Assembly: GCA_964419835.1 (NCBI GenBank)
Contig: CAYQPT010000002.1
Coordinates: forward strand, 6,732 to 70,731
Source: an uncultured Candidatus Saccharibacteria bacterium
Lineage (GTDB): Bacteria > Patescibacteriota > UBA1384 > XYA2-FULL-43-10 > 1-14-0-10-43-13
Direction: 5' to 3'
DNA: 64,000 nucleotides
In this document: piece after piece, positions 4,857 to 63,613 of the stretch
Numbering within the stretch: position 1 is the first letter of the stretch
How the letters are laid out: every line of letters begins with the position of its first letter
The notes under the pieces: generated by a model
Told to the model about the DNA's origin: nothing
Seen by the model: the letters and a program-made list of their open reading frames with translations, nothing else
Databases searched by the model: none
Translations under genes and position numbers: made by a program

Positions 4857-4894
4857 GATTCTTAATTCATTCCGCCAGCTGGCGGATCATAATT

Positions 4895-23194: not shown

Positions 23195-23203
23195 CATAAA
23201 AAT

Positions 23204-23235
23204 AACCTCCCGCAATTGCGGGAGGTTATTTTTAT
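23204..23235. terminator. bidirectional rho-independent terminator
   Basis: Perfect 10-bp stem AACCTCCCGC / GCGGGAGGTT with an AATT loop, followed by ATTTTTAT and preceded by an A-rich run. It lies between the convergent genes 22823..23194 (+) and 23262..24350 (-). Confidence 0.75.
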
Positions 23236-23261
23236 AATATACGATACTGTTGTATATTTGC

Positions 23262-24350
23262 TTATTCGTCCGAAAGACGGAATTTCCAGAGAGCGAGAAG
23301 TGACATGGCCACGATCCAACCAATAATAATTTCAAAGTTAACAGGATTAGAAAACGGTGAAACCGCATCAATCGAGATACCGCGTAGCATTCTAAGAAGC
23401 GGTGCTATCGGCAAGAATTGAACTACACTGAAAAGCCACTTCGGAAGAGCATCGATTGGGAAAAAGACTCCACCTAAAAACATCATCGGAATAGCAATCG
23501 CCTGCGCCATTCCCTGAGCGGCGTCGGCTGTTTTTGCAAAACCGGCCATTACAAAGCCGATTAATTGAAATAATATTGCCCCGAGAAGTGCGATCCCAAT
23601 TAAAACCCAAAGGTTTCCATACACATGTCCATGGAAAACAAACACTCCCATCGTTAAAATTAATGTAATCTGCACAATATTCAGCACCAGCCGAGAAGTA
23701 ACCTCGGCAACCAAAAACTTCCAGGTCGAAAGCGGAGTGGTGGTAATTCGCTTTAAGATCTTGTCCTCTTTATACTTACTAATACCAACCGCCATTCCCA
23801 TAATTGAACCGTTCATGAGCGCCAATCCTAGAATTCCAGCCATAATGAAGTCAAAATAGGAAAACGGACGGTTTGATCCAATTTTTTCTTGTGTTATTGA
23901 AAAAATCGGCTTGGCGTTCTGCAAGGCAAAACTTGTACCTATCAAATATTTATCAAAAAAAGCAGAAAGAATTGATGTCGCCTGACTACTGCTTGGATCG
24001 TAATACATTGTAATACTTTTTGGAGAATTCGGATCGGCTAGATTTCCAAATCCTTCAGGAATCAACACGGCAGCAGAAAGTTTGCTTTTGCTGACTTGAT
24101 CCTTTGCCTCGTCAATATTATCCATTTCCACCACATTTAAAATGTTGGCGTCAATCAAACCTTTGTCTAAATTTTTCGACAATTCAGTGCCGGATTTATT
24201 AACAATAGCAACACTACCGGCCATATTATTGCTCTTGCCAAAGAAAAGACCAAAAATTATGGTAAATATAAGCGGAAACATCAAAGCCCAGAACAAGGCC
24301 TGTTTATTTCTAAGTAACATTTTCAAGTCTGCAAGAAATAATTTAAGCAT
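23262..24350 (-). CDS. ABC-2 family transporter permease
   Basis: 362 aa. N-terminal TM, a large extracytoplasmic loop, and 5 C-terminal TMs. The start overlaps the ATPase gene by 8 nt. Confidence 0.7.
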   Translation of the reverse strand: MLKLFLADLKMLLRNKQALFWALMFPLIFTIIFGLFFGKSNNMAGSVAIVNKSGTELSKNLDKGLIDANILNVVEMDNIDEAKDQVSKSKLSAAVLIPEGFGNLADPNSPKSITMYYDPSSSQATSILSAFFDKYLIGTSFALQNAKPIFSITQEKIGSNRPFSYFDFIMAGILGLALMNGSIMGMAVGISKYKEDKILKRITTTPLSTWKFLVAEVTSRLVLNIVQITLILTMGVFVFHGHVYGNLWVLIGIALLGAILFQLIGFVMAGFAKTADAAQGMAQAIAIPMMFLGGVFFPIDALPKWLFSVVQFLPIAPLLRMLRGISIDAVSPFSNPVNFEIIIGWIVAMSLLALWKFRLSDE

Positions 24351-31615: not shown

Positions 31616-32239
31616 TTGTCATATAATTTACACATGAGTACAAAACTTAAAAATCGATATATTCTGATTGCTTTTTCTGCGATCGAGATAGCGATAGTAT
31701 TGCTGCTGTCAACTGGTATAATTCAGCCAGATTTACGATTTTATTTCTTGGTAGTTTTTGGTTTTGCAACATTGGTTTGTTCTTTGGTCATGAGCGACCA
31801 AAAAAAGATGCTCGGATTAAGAATTGATAATATTAAGAGTGCAATGCTTGCAAATTTAGCTTTCGTGATTGTTGGATCGTTATTTATACTTATCGTCCGA
31901 GAGTTTAATTTAGTACGCTATGTTCTCGATAACATTCCTCCAGCCAGCTGGTATATATTATATGCCTTGCTTCTTGGGCCGATTCAAGAATTTATTTTCA
32001 GAGGATTCTTATTTGCTCGACTTAACAGTAGTGGGATTAATCCTTTGTTCAGAATTATAATAAGCGGCTTACTCTTTGGTTTTATTCATTTAATTTATGG
32101 CGACATTTGGACTCTAATTTTCGCAACGATTTTCGGAATTTGTTTAAGCATTATTTATTACTATAAACCCAATTTATATGCCGCAATATTTTCTCATAGC
32201 ATAATTGGTGCGTTAGCAATCTATCTCAGAATTATATAA
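31616..32239 (+). CDS. CPBP-family (CAAX protease / Abi) intramembrane metalloprotease
   Basis: The conserved motifs are in the right order and spacing: EExxxR (QEFIFRGF), FxxxH (FGFIHLIY) and a C-terminal HS..G (HSIIGA). Confidence 0.75.
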   Translation: MSYNLHMSTKLKNRYILIAFSAIEIAIVLLLSTGIIQPDLRFYFLVVFGFATLVCSLVMSDQKKMLGLRIDNIKSAMLANLAFVIVGSLFILIVREFNLVRYVLDNIPPASWYILYALLLGPIQEFIFRGFLFARLNSSGINPLFRIIISGLLFGFIHLIYGDIWTLIFATIFGICLSIIYYYKPNLYAAIFSHSIIGALAIYLRII

Positions 32240-32275
32240 CAAAAAATGACCAGCCATCGACGGCTGTTCATTTTT

Positions 32276-32501
32276 TGGCAGGGCCAAGAGGAATCGAACC
32301 CCTAATAGAGGTGGCGCCTGTCCGCCGCAGTTACAATCTTGGCAGGGGCTAGAGGAATCGAACCCCTAATAGAGGTTTTGGAGACCCCCGTTATACCATT
32401 TAACTAAGCCCCTATCAAGATTGTACATTAACGTAGGCAGGAAGACCCTCGTTATTCCCGCTGCTCGCGAGCGGCGGGATATACCATTTAACTATGGCCC
32501 T
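32276..32501 (-). other. nested tRNA unit: tRNA-Trp-like 5' half fragment, inverted repeat, intact tRNA-Trp, inverted repeat, tRNA-Trp-like 3' half fragment
   Basis: The 5' fragment (about 32478-32501) is AGGGCCA-TA-GTTA-AATGGTA-TATC. The 3' fragment (32276-32312) is ACCTC-TATT-AGGGG-TTCGATT-CCTCT-TGGCCCT-G-CCA. The fragment acceptors AGGGCCA and TGGCCCT are perfectly complementary and differ from the inner tRNA acceptor (AGGGGCT / AGCCCCT). The 26 nt spanning anticodon-stem 3' strand to T-arm are identical to the inner tRNA. A 9-bp inverted repeat (TTACAATCTT at 32331-32340, AAGATTGTA at 32417-32425) directly flanks the inner tRNA. Confidence 0.6.
32340..32413 (-). tRNA. tRNA-Trp (anticodon CCA)
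   Basis: Cloverleaf read by hand: AGGGGCT-TA-GTTA-AATGGTA-TAAC-G-GGGGT-CTCCAAA-ACCTC-TATT-AGGGG-TTCGATT-CCTCT-AGCCCCT-G-CCA. CCA is encoded. Confidence 0.85.
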
Positions 32502-32595
32502 AAAATGCGCTTGTGCGCAATTATCAATTACCGATAGTCAATGATCATTAAATGAAAATTGAAAAATGATAAATGAAAAATGTAATCGCTTGCGA

Positions 32596-32763
32596 TTACT
32601 TCGTCTCTTTGTGTGCTGTGCGTTTTTTATCAACTTTACAATACTTGACCAATTCAATTCTCTTGATGACATCTTGGCCTTTAAGTCTTTTTTCTGTGTG
32701 ATAATTTCTCGCTTTGCAGTCTGCACATTCGAGAGTTACTAGTTTCCTTGCTTCTTTTGCCAT
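32596..32763 (-). CDS. rpmG: 50S ribosomal protein L33 (not in the ORF track)
   Basis: Translates to MAKEARKLVTLECADCKARNYHTEKRLKGQDVIKRIELVKYCKVDKKRTAHKETK, the bL33 zinc-ribbon signature. The 32538..32726 ORF in the track is a different frame. Confidence 0.8.
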   Translation of the reverse strand: MAKEARKLVTLECADCKARNYHTEKRLKGQDVIKRIELVKYCKVDKKRTAHKETK

Positions 32764-32782
32764 GATTTTTCCTTATATTAAA

Positions 32783-32947
32783 TGGAGCCGAAGGAGGGAT
32801 TTGAACCCACGACCTACTGTTTATCCCTCACCCTTGGAGCCACCTGGGGGATTTGAACCCACGACCTACTGTTTACAAAACAGTTGCTCTACCACTGAGC
32901 TAAGGTGGCACTCAAGGGTGAGGGACTCAACACTGAGCTACTTCGGC
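32783..32947 (-). other. nested tRNA unit: tRNA-Thr-like 5' half fragment, inverted repeat, intact tRNA-Thr(TGT), inverted repeat, tRNA-Thr-like 3' half fragment
   Basis: The 5' fragment (about 32924-32947) is GCCGAAG-TA-GCTC-AGTGTT-GAGT. The 3' fragment (32783-32820) is ACAGT-AGGTC-GTGGG-TTCAAAT-CCCTC-CTTCGGC-T-CCA. The fragment acceptors GCCGAAG and CTTCGGC are perfectly complementary and differ from the inner tRNA acceptor (GCCACCT / AGGTGGC). The 28 nt spanning anticodon-stem 3' strand to T-arm are identical to the inner tRNA. A 12-bp inverted repeat (CCCTCACCCTTG at 32826-32837, CAAGGGTGAGGG at 32913-32924) clamps the inner tRNA, including its CCA end. Confidence 0.6.
32837..32909 (-). 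tRNA. tRNA-Thr (anticodon TGT)
   Basis: GCCACCT-TA-GCTC-AGTGGTA-GAGC-A-ACTGT-TTTGTAA-ACAGT-AGGTC-GTGGG-TTCAAAT-CCCCC-AGGTGGC-T-CCA. There is one T-stem mismatch. CCA is encoded. Confidence 0.85.
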
Positions 32948-32949
32948 AA

Positions 32950-33036
32950 TGGTGCTGAGGGCAGGATTCGAACCTACGAAGGCACAAGGCCGTGTGATTT
33001 ACAGTCACATGCGTTTGACCACTTCGCTACCTCAGC
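32950..33036 (-). tRNA. tRNA-Tyr (anticodon GTA), type II with a long variable arm
   Basis: GCTGAGG-TA-GCGAAGTGGTCAAACGC-A-TGTGA-CTGTAAA-TCACA-(15-nt variable arm CGGCCTTGTGCCTTC)-GTAGG-TTCGAAT-CCTGC-CCTCAGC-A-CCA. Confidence 0.85.
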
Positions 33037-33124
33037 ACATATTTTAATGTCCTTCGACTACTTTTCGAATCATTCGACTCAAATGGTTTACCATGAGCGA
33101 GCGAATAAAATGAAGCGAGTCGAA

Positions 33125-33200
33125 TGGAGCCGACGACGGAACTCGAATCCGTGACCTCACCCTTACCAAGGGTGTGCTCTACCAACTGAGCTACATCGGC
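33125..33200 (-). tRNA. tRNA-Thr (anticodon GGT)
   Basis: GCCGATG-TA-GCTC-AGTTGGTA-GAGC-A-CACCC-TTGGTAA-GGGTG-AGGTC-ACGGA-TTCGAGT-TCCGT-CGTCGGC-T-CCA. Confidence 0.85.
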
Positions 33201-33436
33201 CCAACTTTGCTCTAGTTTGCGCTAGAGCTACGCTGGGCAAGCAAACTCAGGATGAAATTCACTTGTCCTTCGTAGCCCGGCTACAAGAGGGCGAAGAAGG
33301 AAGCTACATCGGCACAGGCGTGAGATCACTCTCAAGCGTAAGGAACAAAAAAATTGTAACATTTTTCTCTAATATTTTCAACCATCAGGTGAGCAGAAAC
33401 AGCAACAACATTTCTGACATTAACTTGCTATATTCT

Positions 33437-36828: not shown

Positions 36829-37180
36829 ATTTCAGTTATATTTAATCATTATTTATAATTCGATTCAAATAAAAAATGGGCCGCCGGCTAAGATAAATTG
36901 GTCTTCTTTGCTAAGTGGGTAGTCGCACGAACCGGCCACGGCCGGCTCAAATATTGACCCAACCCCTCACCCTTCCGATAATGAAATTCACTGCAGGAAG
37001 GGTGAGGGGCGCCCGCATCAATTAAGATGAAGGACCCTTTTGTGAAATATTAACAGCCCAATTTAAAGTACCGACGAACCCACTTATATTATACACCTTG
37101 GTACAATGTCAGACCAAACAAAACAATGGTTGCAAGCCCTTGCTCTAGTCTGGTAAAATTATAGCAACAGGAATTTTTTT

Positions 37181-62251: not shown

Positions 62252-63613
62252 TTACTTCAATTGACTTGAAATATGGTCCACGATTTTAGAAATATCAATT
62301 CGTTCTTGTTTCATGGTATCGCGGTCCCGGATAGTAACTGTTTTGTCCTTTATCGAATCAAAATCAACTGTAATACACCAAGGCGTACCGATTTCATCCT
62401 GTCGGCGATATCGCTTCCCTACCGAGCCACTTTCATCATAATAAGTATGAATTCCCGCCTTTCGTAAATTTCCAGCAATTTCTTTTGCGATCTCGGGCAT
62501 CCCTTCCTTCTTCATCAGCGGAAAAACCGCTACCTTGACCGGAGCTAGCTTTGGGTGCAAGTGAAGTGTAACTTCACCCTCTGCCCTGCCATCCTTACCA
62601 TCTGACTCATCGTAGGCGTCAACCAAGAAGGCCAAAGCGGCTCGGTCTATACCCATTGACGGCTCAACTACATATGGAGTCAATTTTTCCCCTCCGCCAG
62701 CTGGCGGATCATCATTAAAGTATTCAAGGTTGTGCGCCTTTAAGTCAAAATCAGTTCTCTGAGCGATTCCTGCCAGTTCCGATACACCGAAGGGAAAACT
62801 ATATTCAATGTCGCTTGTACCGGCAGAGTAATGAGATAATTCTTCTTTTGCATGTTCTCGAATTGAAATATTTTCTTTGTTTATGCCGAGACTGGTATAG
62901 AAGCTTTCGACTTCTTTAATCCAAAATTCATACCACTTTTTCGATTCCTCTTTGTCCGGCTTTATGAAAAATTCAATTTCGGCTTGTTCAAATTCGCGAG
63001 TGCGGAAGATGAAGTTCCCTGGGGTAATTTCATTTCTAAAGGCCTTGCCTATCTGAGCAATACCAAAGGGCAATTTTACTCGGTTGGATTGCATTACATT
63101 TTGGAAGTTAATAAATATGCCTTGTGCAGTTTCCGGTCGCAAATAAGCAACCGAGGCCGAGTCTTCACTAACACCAATGAAAGTTTTAAACATCAAATTA
63201 AAGTTTTTGGCTTCAGTAAACTCGTGTTCTTCCGCGCCCTTACAATAAAGCATCTCTTTCTGTTCTGAAGTTTTGTTCTCCGATGTCTTTGCCCCTTCTA
63301 CATGGTCAGCGCGAAAACGCTTGTGACATTTTTTACATTCAACCAACGGGTCTGAAAAAGATTTTAAGTGGCCACTCGCCTCCCAGACTTTTGGGTTTTG
63401 GATAATGGCTGAATCAAGCCCAACCATGTCGTCCCGCTCTGTTACAAATTTTTGCCACCAAACATCTTTAATATTTTTCTTTAGTTGCGCGCCAAGCGGA
63501 CCGTAATCAAAAGAATTGGCAAAACCGCCGTAAATTTCCGAAGAGGGAAAAACAAATCCTCGCCTCTTGCAAAGTGAGATTATTTTTTCCATTTGATTAT
63601 TTTTCTCAGCCAT
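62252..63613 (-). CDS. glyQS: glycine--tRNA ligase (dimeric class II type)
   Basis: 453 aa. N-terminal RRGFVFPSSEIYGG. A class II core. A C-terminal anticodon-binding domain. Confidence 0.9.
   Translation of the reverse strand: MAEKNNQMEKIISLCKRRGFVFPSSEIYGGFANSFDYGPLGAQLKKNIKDVWWQKFVTERDDMVGLDSAIIQNPKVWEASGHLKSFSDPLVECKKCHKRFRADHVEGAKTSENKTSEQKEMLYCKGAEEHEFTEAKNFNLMFKTFIGVSEDSASVAYLRPETAQGIFINFQNVMQSNRVKLPFGIAQIGKAFRNEITPGNFIFRTREFEQAEIEFFIKPDKEESKKWYEFWIKEVESFYTSLGINKENISIREHAKEELSHYSAGTSDIEYSFPFGVSELAGIAQRTDFDLKAHNLEYFNDDPPAGGGEKLTPYVVEPSMGIDRAALAFLVDAYDESDGKDGRAEGEVTLHLHPKLAPVKVAVFPLMKKEGMPEIAKEIAGNLRKAGIHTYYDESGSVGKRYRRQDEIGTPWCITVDFDSIKDKTVTIRDRDTMKQERIDISKIVDHISSQLK

Follow-up and report, generated by a model that had tools for sequence, protein, structure and literature searches.

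Several described systems place extra sequence in or beside essential genes. In archaea such as the Thermoproteales and Nanoarchaeum, tRNA genes may contain several introns, be split or be permuted, and their transcripts are spliced at a bulge-helix-bulge. In fungal and algal mitochondria, mobile endonuclease ORFs carry a duplicate of the end of the host gene, and the displaced original is left behind as a pseudogene fragment; the GIY-YIG element of Allomyces atp6 is one of these and occurs alongside GC-rich 'double-hairpin elements'. Miniature palindromic insertion elements are represented by the MITEs, the Rickettsia palindromic elements and the Neisseria Correia elements. Cases related to the mitochondrial ORFs with duplicated gene ends have been described (PMC7315562). 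The tRNA gene cluster of phage T4 encodes the GIY-YIG enzyme SegB, by which the tRNA region is cut in related phages (PMC2330249; reviewed in PMC2988022). In Patescibacteria, group I introns were found in the anticodon loops of tRNA genes (Nakagawa et al. 2026, PMC13011429). We searched the literature for bacterial tRNAs that are split or nested and for tRNAs of Patescibacteria with palindromic or intervening sequences; this last paper was all that was returned, and it is silent on nested tRNAs.

The locus described here lies in the window, by which we mean the whole stretch of 64,000 nucleotides that was analysed. Read on the minus strand from 32501 to 32276, it consists of the 5' part of an outer tRNA-Trp, a stem strand, UGAU, an inner tRNA-Trp, the complementary stem strand and the 3' part of the outer tRNA-Trp. 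The elements named in the first-pass annotation were located on this strand by direct reading, and its central statement, that an intact tRNA-Trp is enclosed by two fragments, each one half of a single tRNA-Trp-like gene, was borne out. We believe it likely that the locus is the ORF-less relic of a homing-type cassette, which carries a rescue tRNA and sits inside the resident tRNA-Trp(CCA) gene. The insert is probably the footprint of a selfish DNA element that is able to invade an essential single-copy gene by means of a replacement copy.

The inner tRNA-Trp(CCA) (32340-32413, minus strand) is intact, with an encoded CCA. It forms a cloverleaf with the anticodon CCA (32413-32340), was called as tRNA-Trp by ARAGORN and scored 61.2 bits against the Rfam family RF00005, for which the gathering threshold is 29. 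It is the sole intact tRNA-Trp within the 64-kb window, and we take it, on the evidence of its sequence, to be the working gene of the locus. The inner allele differs from the outer one and occurs as the sole tRNA-Trp in more distant relatives. Its UGAU leader (32414-32417, minus strand), which stands opposite the 3' GCCA tail, is conserved among nested units: every one of the 13 nested Trp units whose helix has at least 7 bp contains TGAT, and the un-nested Trp genes had other leaders.

The outer gene retains its native position between an upstream GC hairpin and a terminator. The hairpin, TTGCGCACAAGCGCA (32506-32520, minus strand), was recognized from its sequence directly upstream of the outer tRNA-Trp and represents the native 5' context; in the relatives L011 and L014 (single tRNA-Trp) and L063 (outer copy), an equivalent GCGC hairpin occurs 3-4 nt upstream of the gene. 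The outer CCA is immediately followed by an intrinsic terminator, which an inverted repeat marks (32241-32275, minus strand; hairpin at 32266-32251 followed by a T run), and in un-nested relatives the single tRNA-Trp is likewise followed by a terminator in this position. Between these landmarks, the minus strand carries three pieces of the gene. Piece 1, AGGGCCATAGTTAAATGGT (32483-32501), holds the acceptor 5' strand and the first part of the D arm (gene positions 1-19) and matches the allele of L062, L064 and L110 at 19 of 19 positions. Piece 2, ATAACGAGGGTCT (32443-32455), covers gene positions 20-32, through U33 of the anticodon loop, and matches the L062 allele at 13 of 13. Piece 3 (32276-32312) contains the 3' strand of the anticodon stem, the variable loop, the T arm, the acceptor 3' strand and GCCA, and matches that allele at 36 of 37. 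The outer 5' part as a whole thus agrees at 32 of 32 nt, and the 3' part at 36 of 37 nt, with the single uninterrupted tRNA-Trp of L062, L064 and L110, empty-site relatives whose rpmG genes are 95%, 89% and 93% identical, respectively, to that of the window. We read the two outer parts as one interrupted gene, the lineage's own tRNA-Trp allele. The outer exons were compared with the relatives by a custom spliced alignment, because MAFFT placed the gene of the empty-site relatives on the inner copy and the flanks were unalignable. Dating the insertion by the divergence of its flanks was considered and given up; the DNA beside tRNA genes is saturated and too diverged.

The 5' fragment reported earlier, AGGGCCATAGTTAAATGGTATATC, begins at 32501, and the 3' fragment, ACCTCTATTAGGGGTTCGATTCCTCTTGGCCCTGCCA, corresponds to 32312-32276 and includes a 26-nt run identical to the inner tRNA (a match of 38 nt at 95% in a direct-repeat search of the window). 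The outer acceptor strands AGGGCCA and TGGCCCT are perfectly complementary and distinct from the inner AGGGGCT and AGCCCCT, as had been noted. This complementarity is not a sign of cooperating halves; it was inherited with the resident allele and is intact in L062, L064 and L110. The acceptor stems of the outer copies were also tried as a test of selection and were uninformative (four wobble-preserving against at least five disruptive changes), because the complementarity comes with the resident allele anyway.

In the window, C34 of the resident gene has become T, which is the first base of the cassette 5' arm, and the resident CAAA at the 3' junction, comprising anticodon nucleotides 35-36 and loop positions 37-38, has been replaced by CGCC (32313-32316, minus strand). 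Set against the precise junctions in relatives, the change is disabling. The window has ...GGGTCT-T / cassette / CGCC-ACCTC at this point, so that rejoining at the boundaries of the family would yield a loop such as CUUCGCC, or a shorter one, with a pyrimidine at position 37. A functional tRNA should show, after removal of the insert, a 7-nt anticodon loop with U33 and a purine at position 37, as well as intact stems, and the outer gene of the window does not. Its D arm also retains a 3-nt duplication unless the insert there is removed exactly. Judged by these lesions, the outer tRNA-Trp copy of the window is dead.

The D arm was hit by an insertion of 27 nt (32456-32482, minus strand), which we delimited by its inverted repeat and by spliced alignment. 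It is composed of a 24-nt palindrome, TCCCGCCGCTCGCGAGCAGCGGGA (32479-32456), and a 3-nt duplication of the resident sequence ATA. The palindrome is a perfect or near-perfect 12+12 repeat. The interrupted outer tRNA-Trp of L099 holds the same palindrome twice, with 3-nt duplications of AAA and TCT, so three copies are present in two genomes, the rpmG genes of which are 69% identical. Miniature inverted-repeat elements are marked by terminal inverted repeats, target-site duplication and several copies in different places, and the D-arm insertion looks like a miniature, MITE-like DNA insertion. No transposase was identified for the palindrome. This insertion bears on a further proposal of the first-pass annotation. 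The GCTCGCGAGC palindrome and the segments CCGCCGC and GCGGCGG were each located in the unit, but the suggested pairing of the two segments is unlikely: CCGCCGC belongs to the 24-nt palindromic insertion at 32479-32456 and GCGGCGG to the 3' arm of the cassette, and they are better explained by two separate GC-rich palindromic insertions than by long-range pairing.

The cassette is about 126 nt long and lies in the outer anticodon loop, between anticodon nucleotides 34 and 35. It contains, in this order, a GC-rich foot, an AT-rich clamp, UGAU, tRNA-Trp(CCA), the complementary clamp and a foot ending in GGCGGACAGG. The 5' arm, TCCTGCCTACGTTAATGTACAATCT (32418-32442, minus strand), includes a GC-rich foot, CCTGCC, and an AT-rich clamp strand, ACAATCT (32424-32418); arms homologous to it were found in L098, L073, L009, L083, L063, L010 and L013. 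The 3' arm, AGATTGTAACTGCGGCGGACAGG (32317-32339, minus strand), joins the clamp strand AGATTGT (32339-32333) to the conserved end motif GGCGGACAGG, which was confined to interrupted tRNAs and always lay on the tRNA sense strand (150 loci). The clamp had been described as a 9-bp inverted repeat directly flanking the inner tRNA; the two strands are there, but a length of 9 bp requires that the final A of the inner CCA be counted in.

A helix of at least 7 bp between leader and trailer was found in 24 of the 184 distinct tRNA units. Its mean length was 9.5 bp in those 24 units, compared to 3.4 bp after the flanks had been re-paired between loci. The stems covary between loci and begin directly after CCA, with a constant leader of 4-5 nt, and folding predictions give a nested structure, with z = -3.6 (Trp unit) and -6.8 (Thr unit) relative to dinucleotide shuffles. 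With this fold and with helices longer than those of re-paired flanks, we agree with the earlier view that chance did not produce the unit. The idea that the clamp represents an anticodon arm was also considered. The Trp clamp of the window, CAATC-TT-GAT-AA-GATTG, would then have a would-be Ile anticodon, but the rule is not general and was rejected because clamp sequences vary by locus and are often closed by the tetraloop-like UGAU. The clamp of the Thr unit resembles the anticodon arm of tRNA-Thr(GGU). A hammerhead-like CUGAUGA around the UGAU leader was absent on inspection. At the Rfam gathering score, no group I intron or other ribozyme RNA family was detected in the window or in the loci of 12 relatives, and no ribozyme or intron matched at E ≤5 in 32150-33300 or at E ≤1 in the whole window.

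The same architecture recurs in the tRNA-Thr(UGU) unit of the window (32783-32947, minus strand; ARAGORN, sequence and fold), as had been recognized before. Here an outer tRNA-Thr(UGU) is split by TCCCTCACCCTTGAGT, an intact tRNA-Thr(UGU) at 32909-32835 and AGGGTGAGGGA, and the cassette replaces about 11 nt of the outer gene, namely the end of the D stem, the 5' strand of the anticodon stem and most of the loop. The outer Thr(UGU) gene begins 2 nt after tRNA-Tyr, like the resident gene in relatives, and the cassette arms are identical in L070, though the outer and inner alleles there differ. The gene rpmG may belong to the same transcript, which the first-pass annotation had proposed and which is plausible from a promoter-like site at 33381-33353, a weak hairpin after rpmG and the strong terminator after the outer CCA. 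The hairpin after rpmG is terminator-like only in a weak form.

Among the Patescibacteria, about 16 of the 48 distinct Trp loci of relatives showed the interrupted design, and it was also found in tRNA-Thr(UGU) and tRNA-Thr(GGU). The inner tRNA always had the identity of the outer one. In the loci examined, each of about 25 interrupted genes has an intact tRNA with its own anticodon either inside it or next to it; no tRNA was present there solely as an interrupted copy, and no interrupted gene was the only gene for its anticodon. A precise junction, GTCTC/...GGACAGG/CAAAACC (class a), occurs in L009, L010, L013, L063, L083 and L098. Most outer copies carry lesions: the acceptor 3' strand is lost in L001, the gene is truncated in L002 and L063, mismatches are present in L083, the 5' half is scrambled in L073, and 18 nt of the tRNA body are replaced or deleted throughout one whole cassette class. 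Clean outer copies that would give a complete tRNA after removal of the inserts were seen only in L009 and L010 (Trp), L015 (Thr-GGU) and L142 (Thr-UGU). In another group, L017, L069, L072, L097 and L139, only 3' remnants are found downstream of an intact tRNA. The site is filled in the window, L001, L002 and L061 and empty in L062, L064 and L110, a filled/empty pattern, with flanks of the recipient type, of the kind that homing would produce. The absence of the fragments from close relatives had been named as evidence against the feature. They are indeed absent from some close relatives, which speaks for a recent insertion and does not count against the feature being real. Because the same resident allele (AGGGCCA) holds two cassette classes, one in the window and the other in L001, L002 and L061, the insertions appear to have been independent.

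Some versions of the element, at Trp and Leu genes, come with a GIY-YIG nuclease gene. In L099, the GIY-YIG ORF lies inside the Trp cassette, and homologues of it adjoin tRNA-Trp or tRNA-Leu in five of five cases, mostly with remnants. A protein with a LAGLIDADG-like fold abuts tRNA-Thr(UGU). The window contains no endonuclease gene of either family (tblastn, 175 family members); its copy is therefore at most an ORF-less derivative, and homing is deduced here from the relatives.

We propose that the original single-copy tRNA-Trp(CCA) gene was broken by two DNA insertions, the cassette in the anticodon loop and, separately, the palindrome in the D arm. The outer halves would then be pseudogene remnants, transcribed merely as leader and trailer of the inner tRNA. 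RNase P may cut at position +1 of the inner gene, since an internal loop, flanked by the clamp helix and the acceptor stem, would place the 4-nt leader opposite the 4-nt GCCA tail. Selection at the RNA level perhaps maintains the clamp and foot helices, as they would enforce the nested fold and prevent mispairing between the nearly identical inner and outer halves. The selfish-element family would be common in this clade of Patescibacteria and would target essential single-copy tRNA genes, in which the elements may persist by virtue of the replacement tRNA, of matching identity, that they bring. It could spread via homologous gene conversion with the conserved tRNA halves as homology arms, probably initiated by a homing endonuclease; full versions would have the GIY-YIG gene, and the window copy would be an ORF-less derivative. 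Some observations do not fit easily. The same skeleton holds different inner alleles (window against L098 and L073, L010 against L013, and, for Thr, window against L070), which is not predicted by a simple joint transfer of cassette and cargo, so that one has to assume additional recombination. Without their inserts, a few outer genes show no lesion, and the class-a insertion is exact to the nucleotide, which is how an intron would look as well. A model that acts on DNA only also leaves the sense-strand-only GGCGGACAGG motif and the invariant UGAU leader unexplained.

The opposite possibility is that the outer gene is functional, that is, an intron-containing or split bacterial tRNA with another tRNA in its intervening sequence, such that one transcript would yield two tRNAs. 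The inner tRNA would be released by RNase P and a 3' endonuclease; the outer halves, kept together by the stems and the acceptor helix, would then be trimmed and ligated or would work as a two-piece tRNA. The class-a precision restores a perfect Trp anticodon loop in L009, L010, L013, L063, L083 and L098, and the lesion-free outer genes of L009, L010, L015 and L142 have compensated stems. Covarying stems, the conserved and strand-specific GGCGGACAGG and the nested predicted fold would all agree with such a tRNA, and Patescibacteria tolerate introns in tRNA anticodon loops (PMC13011429). Nevertheless, rejoining cannot give a Trp anticodon loop in the window, where C34 and CAAA have been lost, and the D arm there holds a transposon-like palindrome with its target duplication. 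The outer copies of most relatives have lethal lesions, including the replacement of 18 nt in one class and about 11 nt in Thr(UGU). An intact tRNA with the same anticodon accompanies every interrupted gene, and a spliceable intron would not need one. No ribozyme family was detected, and a bulge-helix-bulge with two 3-nt bulges and a 4-bp helix was not found by eye at the class-a junctions, the 19-nt hairpin of Thr(GGU) or the L142 junctions, with nothing convincing among them. We know of no bacterial enzyme set for the precise removal of such arms. A functional outer gene is accordingly a quite improbable explanation of the locus. For the clean outer genes of the clade, it is conceivable, with slightly less probability still, that they are expressed multi-intron tRNAs, in which the embedded tRNA is the excision signal for RNase P and the 3' endonuclease and the stems with GGCGGACAGG either guide the removal of the arms and the joining of the halves or hold the halves as a two-piece tRNA. 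If this were true, Bacteria would have a protein-dependent pathway of tRNA splicing or split tRNAs, in which one tRNA is the intron of another.

The remaining explanations dispense with a mobile element or with the feature itself. tRNA clusters are prone to duplication, and the gene could have been duplicated in place by slippage or unequal recombination, with extra copies decaying to halves and no cassette or homing involved; the 26 identical nucleotides shared as direct repeats by the inner and outer 3' halves, and the lack of a nuclease gene in the window, would agree with this. We consider such a local origin unlikely, as the two copies are different alleles, the outer one being the single gene of the closest relatives and the inner one that of more distant lineages. 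Duplication also does not account for a copy that lies, between covarying stems, within the anticodon loop of the other, the same arms and boundaries are seen in different outer alleles and genomes, and nuclease-bearing versions exist. Integration at tRNA genes classically leaves an intact tRNA with a copy of its 3' part downstream. This is what the locus shows, and the loci with 3' remnants only (L017, L069, L072, L097 and L139) look similar; a phage or island might have integrated into the 3' half of tRNA-Trp and then been deleted almost entirely, leaving an attL/attR-like 3' duplication. The 3' repeat, however, has a matching 5' half upstream, the acceptor strand of which pairs with the downstream fragment, and this half would be unexplained. 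Only 23 nt separate the inner CCA from the junction region, and 27 nt from the retained outer 3' sequence, with no integrase gene or remnant of an element, and in none of about 48 loci is the 3' fragment separated from the inner tRNA by a full integrative element. The insertion point at the anticodon and the stems are conserved across loci. We regard an integrase scar as very unlikely. An assembly or binning artefact has a negligible probability. The window probably derives from a MAG, and alleles that are 90% alike may confuse assemblers when reads of different strains form chimeras. However, nested units with covarying stems are present in many independent assemblies and projects (NCBI MAGs, JGI and ENA), on contigs up to 799 kb, in agreement with the first-pass annotation, and the stems, UGAU leader and arms are not tRNA sequence, so a collapse of alleles cannot create them.

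Selfish elements are normally barred from single-copy essential RNA genes unless they are self-splicing. The homing-type cassette that we favour points to another solution, which is to supply a spare copy of the gene while the original dies. If confirmed, it would explain the tRNA halves, hairpins and small nuclease genes strewn over the tRNA loci of these minimal genomes, and would provide a mechanism by which tRNA alleles are replaced horizontally in Patescibacteria. The linked nucleases, GIY-YIG enzymes and an uncharacterised helix-turn-helix/LAGLIDADG-like-fold family, would become candidate tRNA-gene-specific endonucleases, and the 24-nt palindrome with its 3-bp duplication would be among the smallest transposon-like insertions described. 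For annotation, it should be noted that tRNA finders report the inner gene only and that the outer halves may be mistaken for split or intron-containing tRNAs.

In comparison with known systems, the D-arm palindrome is like MITE-type elements in its terminal inverted repeats, its 3-bp target duplication and its copies at separate sites in two genomes. It is far smaller (24 nt) than the MITEs, and unlike such elements it was met here only in dead tRNA copies. The interrupted genes are similar to archaeal tRNA genes in that short insertions occur at many non-canonical positions and that halves are joined by complementary GC-rich sequences. However, they belong to Bacteria, a bulge-helix-bulge is not recognisable, and most of them are damaged and always have an intact copy alongside. 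Because one type of insertion here produced target-site duplications, unlike archaeal introns, it appears to act at the DNA level. The group I introns of Patescibacteria occur in the same phylum and have the same anticodon-loop target (positions 34/35 or 35/36); both are precisely inserted, in our case in the cleanest relatives, and most copies of both lack nuclease genes. In contrast to these introns, our insert has no group I core; it contains only about 50 nt of non-tRNA sequence, where a core needs about 200 nt or more. The 5' junction of the family (GTCTC/) ends in C and not in the U of group I introns, although the insert ends in G (GGACAGG/) as they do. Moreover, the insert carries a tRNA, and the host gene decays.

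The closest parallels are perhaps found in intronless homing, the movement of free-standing homing endonuclease genes along with the DNA beside them. As for T4 SegB, a GIY-YIG gene lies among or beside tRNA genes (here, in the relatives), the spread would depend on the repair of double-strand breaks, during which the nuclease gene and adjacent tRNA sequence are copied, self-splicing RNA plays no part, and presence or absence varies between close relatives. The present case differs in that the genomes are those of cellular Patescibacteria and not of phages, that the window copy is without a nuclease gene, and that the insertion lies inside the target tRNA gene and destroys it, bringing a complete tRNA of the same identity, set between covarying stems, as its replacement. 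The mitochondrial endonuclease ORFs share with it the combination of invasion and rescue, in which an essential gene is interrupted, the functional part is supplied and the resident part decays, and small GC-rich palindromic elements occur in the same genomes. In our bacterial genome, the target is a tRNA gene and the rescue extends to the whole gene instead of its end, so that a tRNA is nested in the anticodon loop of its own pseudogene.

On the minus strand, positions 33200 to 32240 hold, in this order, tRNA-Thr(GGU), an 88-nt spacer element, tRNA-Tyr, a composite Thr(UGU) unit, rpmG (32763-32596), a composite Trp unit (32501-32276) and a strong terminator. The first-pass annotation had described the Trp unit as an intact tRNA-Trp between tRNA-Trp-like half fragments. 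When the minus-strand sequence was inspected, all of its elements were found where it had placed them, and a repeat search recovered the inverted repeat around the inner tRNA-Trp, the palindrome and a 38-nt direct repeat (95% identical) in the 3' parts of the inner and outer genes. ARAGORN and Rfam called the inner tRNAs alone in both units, and RNAfold predicted the nested fold for both, with z = -3.6 (Trp) and -6.8 (Thr) against shuffles. Co-transcription of rpmG with the nested units, also proposed earlier, is plausible because tRNA-Thr(GGU) is preceded by a promoter-like site, the terminator-like hairpin after rpmG is only weak, and a strong bidirectional terminator directly follows the CCA of the outer tRNA-Trp. 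A weak Rfam match to Leu_leader at 23200-23335 on the minus strand scores 29.7 bits (threshold 50, E = 0.044) and is probably due to chance.

Relatives' loci (L numbers below) were fetched from genome and metagenome collections with rpmG as query. They come from Patescibacteria (Berkelbacteria-like MAGs), and their genes are ordered as in the window. Three of them, L062, L064 and L110 (rpmG 95, 89 and 93% identical), each have one uninterrupted tRNA-Trp, AGGGCCATAGTTAAATGGTATAACGAGGGTCTCCAAAACCTTTATTAGGGGTTCGATTCCTCTTGGCCCTGCCA, and a spliced alignment showed that the outer tRNA-Trp of the window is this allele in three pieces. Gene positions 1-19 are followed by a 27-nt insert, positions 20-32 by the tRNA-bearing cassette, and positions 39-74 (36/37 identical) come after a junction in which CAAA has become CGCC. 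The outer gene preserves its native context, with a GCGC hairpin just 5' of it that recurs in L011, L014 and L063, and a terminator directly 3' of CCA as in all un-nested relatives. The inner tRNA-Trp is another allele (AGGGGCU.../...AGCCCCU), and more distantly related loci (L006, L091 and L097, for example) have it as their only tRNA-Trp. The acceptor strands of the outer halves are therefore complementary by inheritance from an intact ancestral gene, and their pairing does not show that the two halves are still working together.

In six relatives (L009, L010, L013, L063, L083 and L098) the junction is clean, GTCTC/cassette ...GGACAGG/CAAAACC, and the insertion is exact, between anticodon nucleotides 34 and 35. 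The window junction reads GTCT-T and CGCC-ACC; judged from these bases, no rejoining would restore the CCA anticodon loop and the outer copy appears to be dead. The D-arm insert consists of a 24-nt palindrome, TCCCGCCGCTCGCGAGCAGCGGGA, at 32456-32479 and a 3-nt ATA duplication of resident sequence. L099 (rpmG only 69% identical) has two copies of this palindrome in its interrupted tRNA-Trp, at 794-817 and 1207-1230, in sites other than the D-arm site of the window and with the duplications AAA and TCT. It was thus seen at three different positions, all in dead tRNA-Trp copies and each with a 3-nt target duplication. This pattern is the signature of DNA insertion and not of an RNA intron, and the palindrome resembles a MITE of extremely small size. 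A 16-nt palindrome, TCCGCCAGCTGGCGGA, has two exact copies in the window (chance expectation 0.01), at 4871-4886 and 62693-62708; one is intergenic and the other lies in frame (DPPAGG) within a glycyl-tRNA-synthetase-like ORF (62252-63613, minus strand). It is also inserted in the T loops of dead tRNA-Trp in L083 and, as a variant, in L073.

When every tRNA in the relatives' loci was screened, the arrangement proved to be recurrent. A tRNA-Trp interrupted with an intact tRNA-Trp inside was found in about 16 of 48 distinct loci, an interrupted Thr(UGU) in the window, L070, L086, L021 and L142, and an interrupted Thr(GGU) in L006, L015, L066, L070, L100 and L142. The anticodon of the inner tRNA was always that of the interrupted gene, and many loci had an intact tRNA beside a 5' remnant alone or a 3' remnant alone. 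The Trp cassettes fall into two classes: class a, that of the window, is an exact 34/35 insertion ending in GGCGGACAGG, and in class b the cassette takes the place of 18 nt in the body of the tRNA (CTCCAA/YCCC...UGAU-tRNA...GGGA/CGAYTCC). Within the window's closest group the resident allele AGGGCCA carries class a in the window and class b in L001, L002 and L061, and the two classes therefore represent independent insertions. Outer copies were mostly damaged: the acceptor 3' strand is lost in L001, truncation has shortened the copies of L002 and L063, acceptor mismatches occur in L083, the 5' half is scrambled in L073 and the D arm is mutated in L013. GC-rich palindromes have gathered in the D, anticodon and T regions of outer copies. 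A different, recurrent kind of remnant is a GC-rich element of about 100-140 nt after an intact tRNA (L139 372-560; L140 1435-1640; L010 3433-3620; downstream of tRNAs in L069, L097 and L100), which starts with an inverted T-arm copy and whose end directly duplicates the final 16-22 nt of the tRNA.

In the Thr(UGU) unit (32783-32947, minus strand), the outer gene is split by TCCCTCACCCTTGAGT, the inner tRNA-Thr(UGU) and AGGGTGAGGGA, and about 11 nt of it are replaced. The outer allele, GCCGAAG.../...CUUCGGC, was found intact in L021, and it starts 2 nt after tRNA-Tyr like the resident gene elsewhere. The cassette arms are 100% identical to those of L070, and the outer and inner alleles both differ. 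The anticodon arm of tRNA-Thr(GGU) and the class-b Trp cassette stems are similar to the stem of this unit. A hairpin at 36963-37009, about 135 nt upstream of tRNA-Pro, has a perfect 14-bp stem (CCCCTCACCCTTCC...GGAAGGGTGAGGGG) of the same family as the Thr(UGU) clamp and a loop without a tRNA. In L142 (575-1140), from a distant lineage of Patescibacteria in which tRNA genes do not encode CCA, Thr(UGU) and Thr(GGU) are both nested in interrupted copies, with cassettes between anticodon nucleotides 35 and 36, the reported group I intron site in this phylum; its outer Thr(UGU) has no lesions after removal of a 20-nt palindrome and the cassette.

The leader of the inner tRNA is UGAU in 13 Trp units, in which a helix of 7-10 bp, the clamp, begins immediately after CCA. 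The helix sequence varies by locus and its strands remain complementary, with a mean of 9.5 bp in the nested set versus 3.4 bp when flanks were re-paired between loci. The 4-nt leader faces a 4-nt GCCA tail, forming an internal loop between clamp and acceptor stem. We infer that selection on how the inner pre-tRNA is processed maintains this geometry, and that the nested fold is favoured by the stems at the expense of mispairing between the near-identical inner and outer halves.

Nuclease genes accompany some of these elements. The Trp cassette of L099 contains a 72-aa GIY-YIG ORF (Pfam E = 8e-14) between the outer D arm and the clamp, with 55 homologous proteins, for the most part from Patescibacteria. 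In all five homologue contexts examined besides L099, an intact tRNA begins 4-105 nt downstream of the ORF (Trp in L139, L140, L142 and L143; Leu-CAA in L141), and four of the five also have remnants of this tRNA, placed before the ORF or after the tRNA. In L139 the upstream flank is just 32 nt long (contig end) and a 3' remnant is present downstream. In L141 (1300-1500), three tandem repeats of about 90 nt precede the ORF and intact tRNA-Leu, each with a tRNA-Leu(CAA) 5' fragment ending in the anticodon loop, plus hairpins. The 88-nt element, TTCGACTCG...CTCGCTCATGG...GTCGAAGGAC (33037-33124, minus strand), directly after the CCA of tRNA-Thr(GGU) and before tRNA-Tyr, has no ORF; longer TTCGACTCG... 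elements after tRNAs in L007, L008 and L017 hold a second type of GIY-YIG ORF (L008, Pfam E = 7.7e-14). Another family, HTH + LAGLIDADG-like ORFs of about 200 aa, directly abuts tRNA-Thr(UGU) in L009, L010, L063, others and four distant genomic contexts, and L010 keeps a 5' Thr(UGU) remnant ahead of the ORF. No homologues of the GIY-YIG and HTH + LAGLIDADG-like families were found in the 64-kb window, which leaves its cassettes without an ORF, the state expected of a homing element late in its life cycle.

We propose that a non-splicing cassette may occupy an essential single-copy tRNA gene by bringing an intact tRNA of the same identity, and may spread via break repair with the conserved tRNA halves as homology arms. 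Such use of the halves would explain why inner and outer identities match. The recipient type and lasting complementarity of the acceptor strands would be accounted for by their position outside the conversion tract, shared boundaries and shared deletions in different alleles would follow from the same spread, and the frequent 5'-only or 3'-only half-products would arise when invasion takes the inner copy as one arm.

Some observations do not fit this model and leave a low probability that outer genes are processed into functional RNAs. Loci with the same arms have different inner alleles (window versus L098 and L073; L010 versus L013; window versus L070). The GGCGGACAGG motif is conserved, lies on the sense strand throughout, and recurs in a 19-nt hairpin inserted at ACTC/CATGG of outer Thr(GGU) genes; UGAU is invariant, and a few outer genes (L009, L010, L015 and L142 only) are clean. 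However, a spliceable insert would need no spare tRNA, which is the main counter-argument, and among the loci seen every interrupted gene has its spare. A group I intron, an integrase scar, a plain tandem duplication and an assembly artefact were each rejected as identities of the Trp unit.

No description of tRNA-in-tRNA nesting was found in the searchable literature. Mitochondrial GIY-YIG elements with a duplicated gene end are one of the closest parallels to the proposed cassette. T4 SegB in the phage tRNA cluster is likewise among the closest documented ones (PMC2330249). The Trp unit works like an intronless homing cassette to which a rescue gene has been added; however, the nuclease gene that defines such cassettes is missing from the window copy, and we therefore file it as an ORF-less derivative of them.
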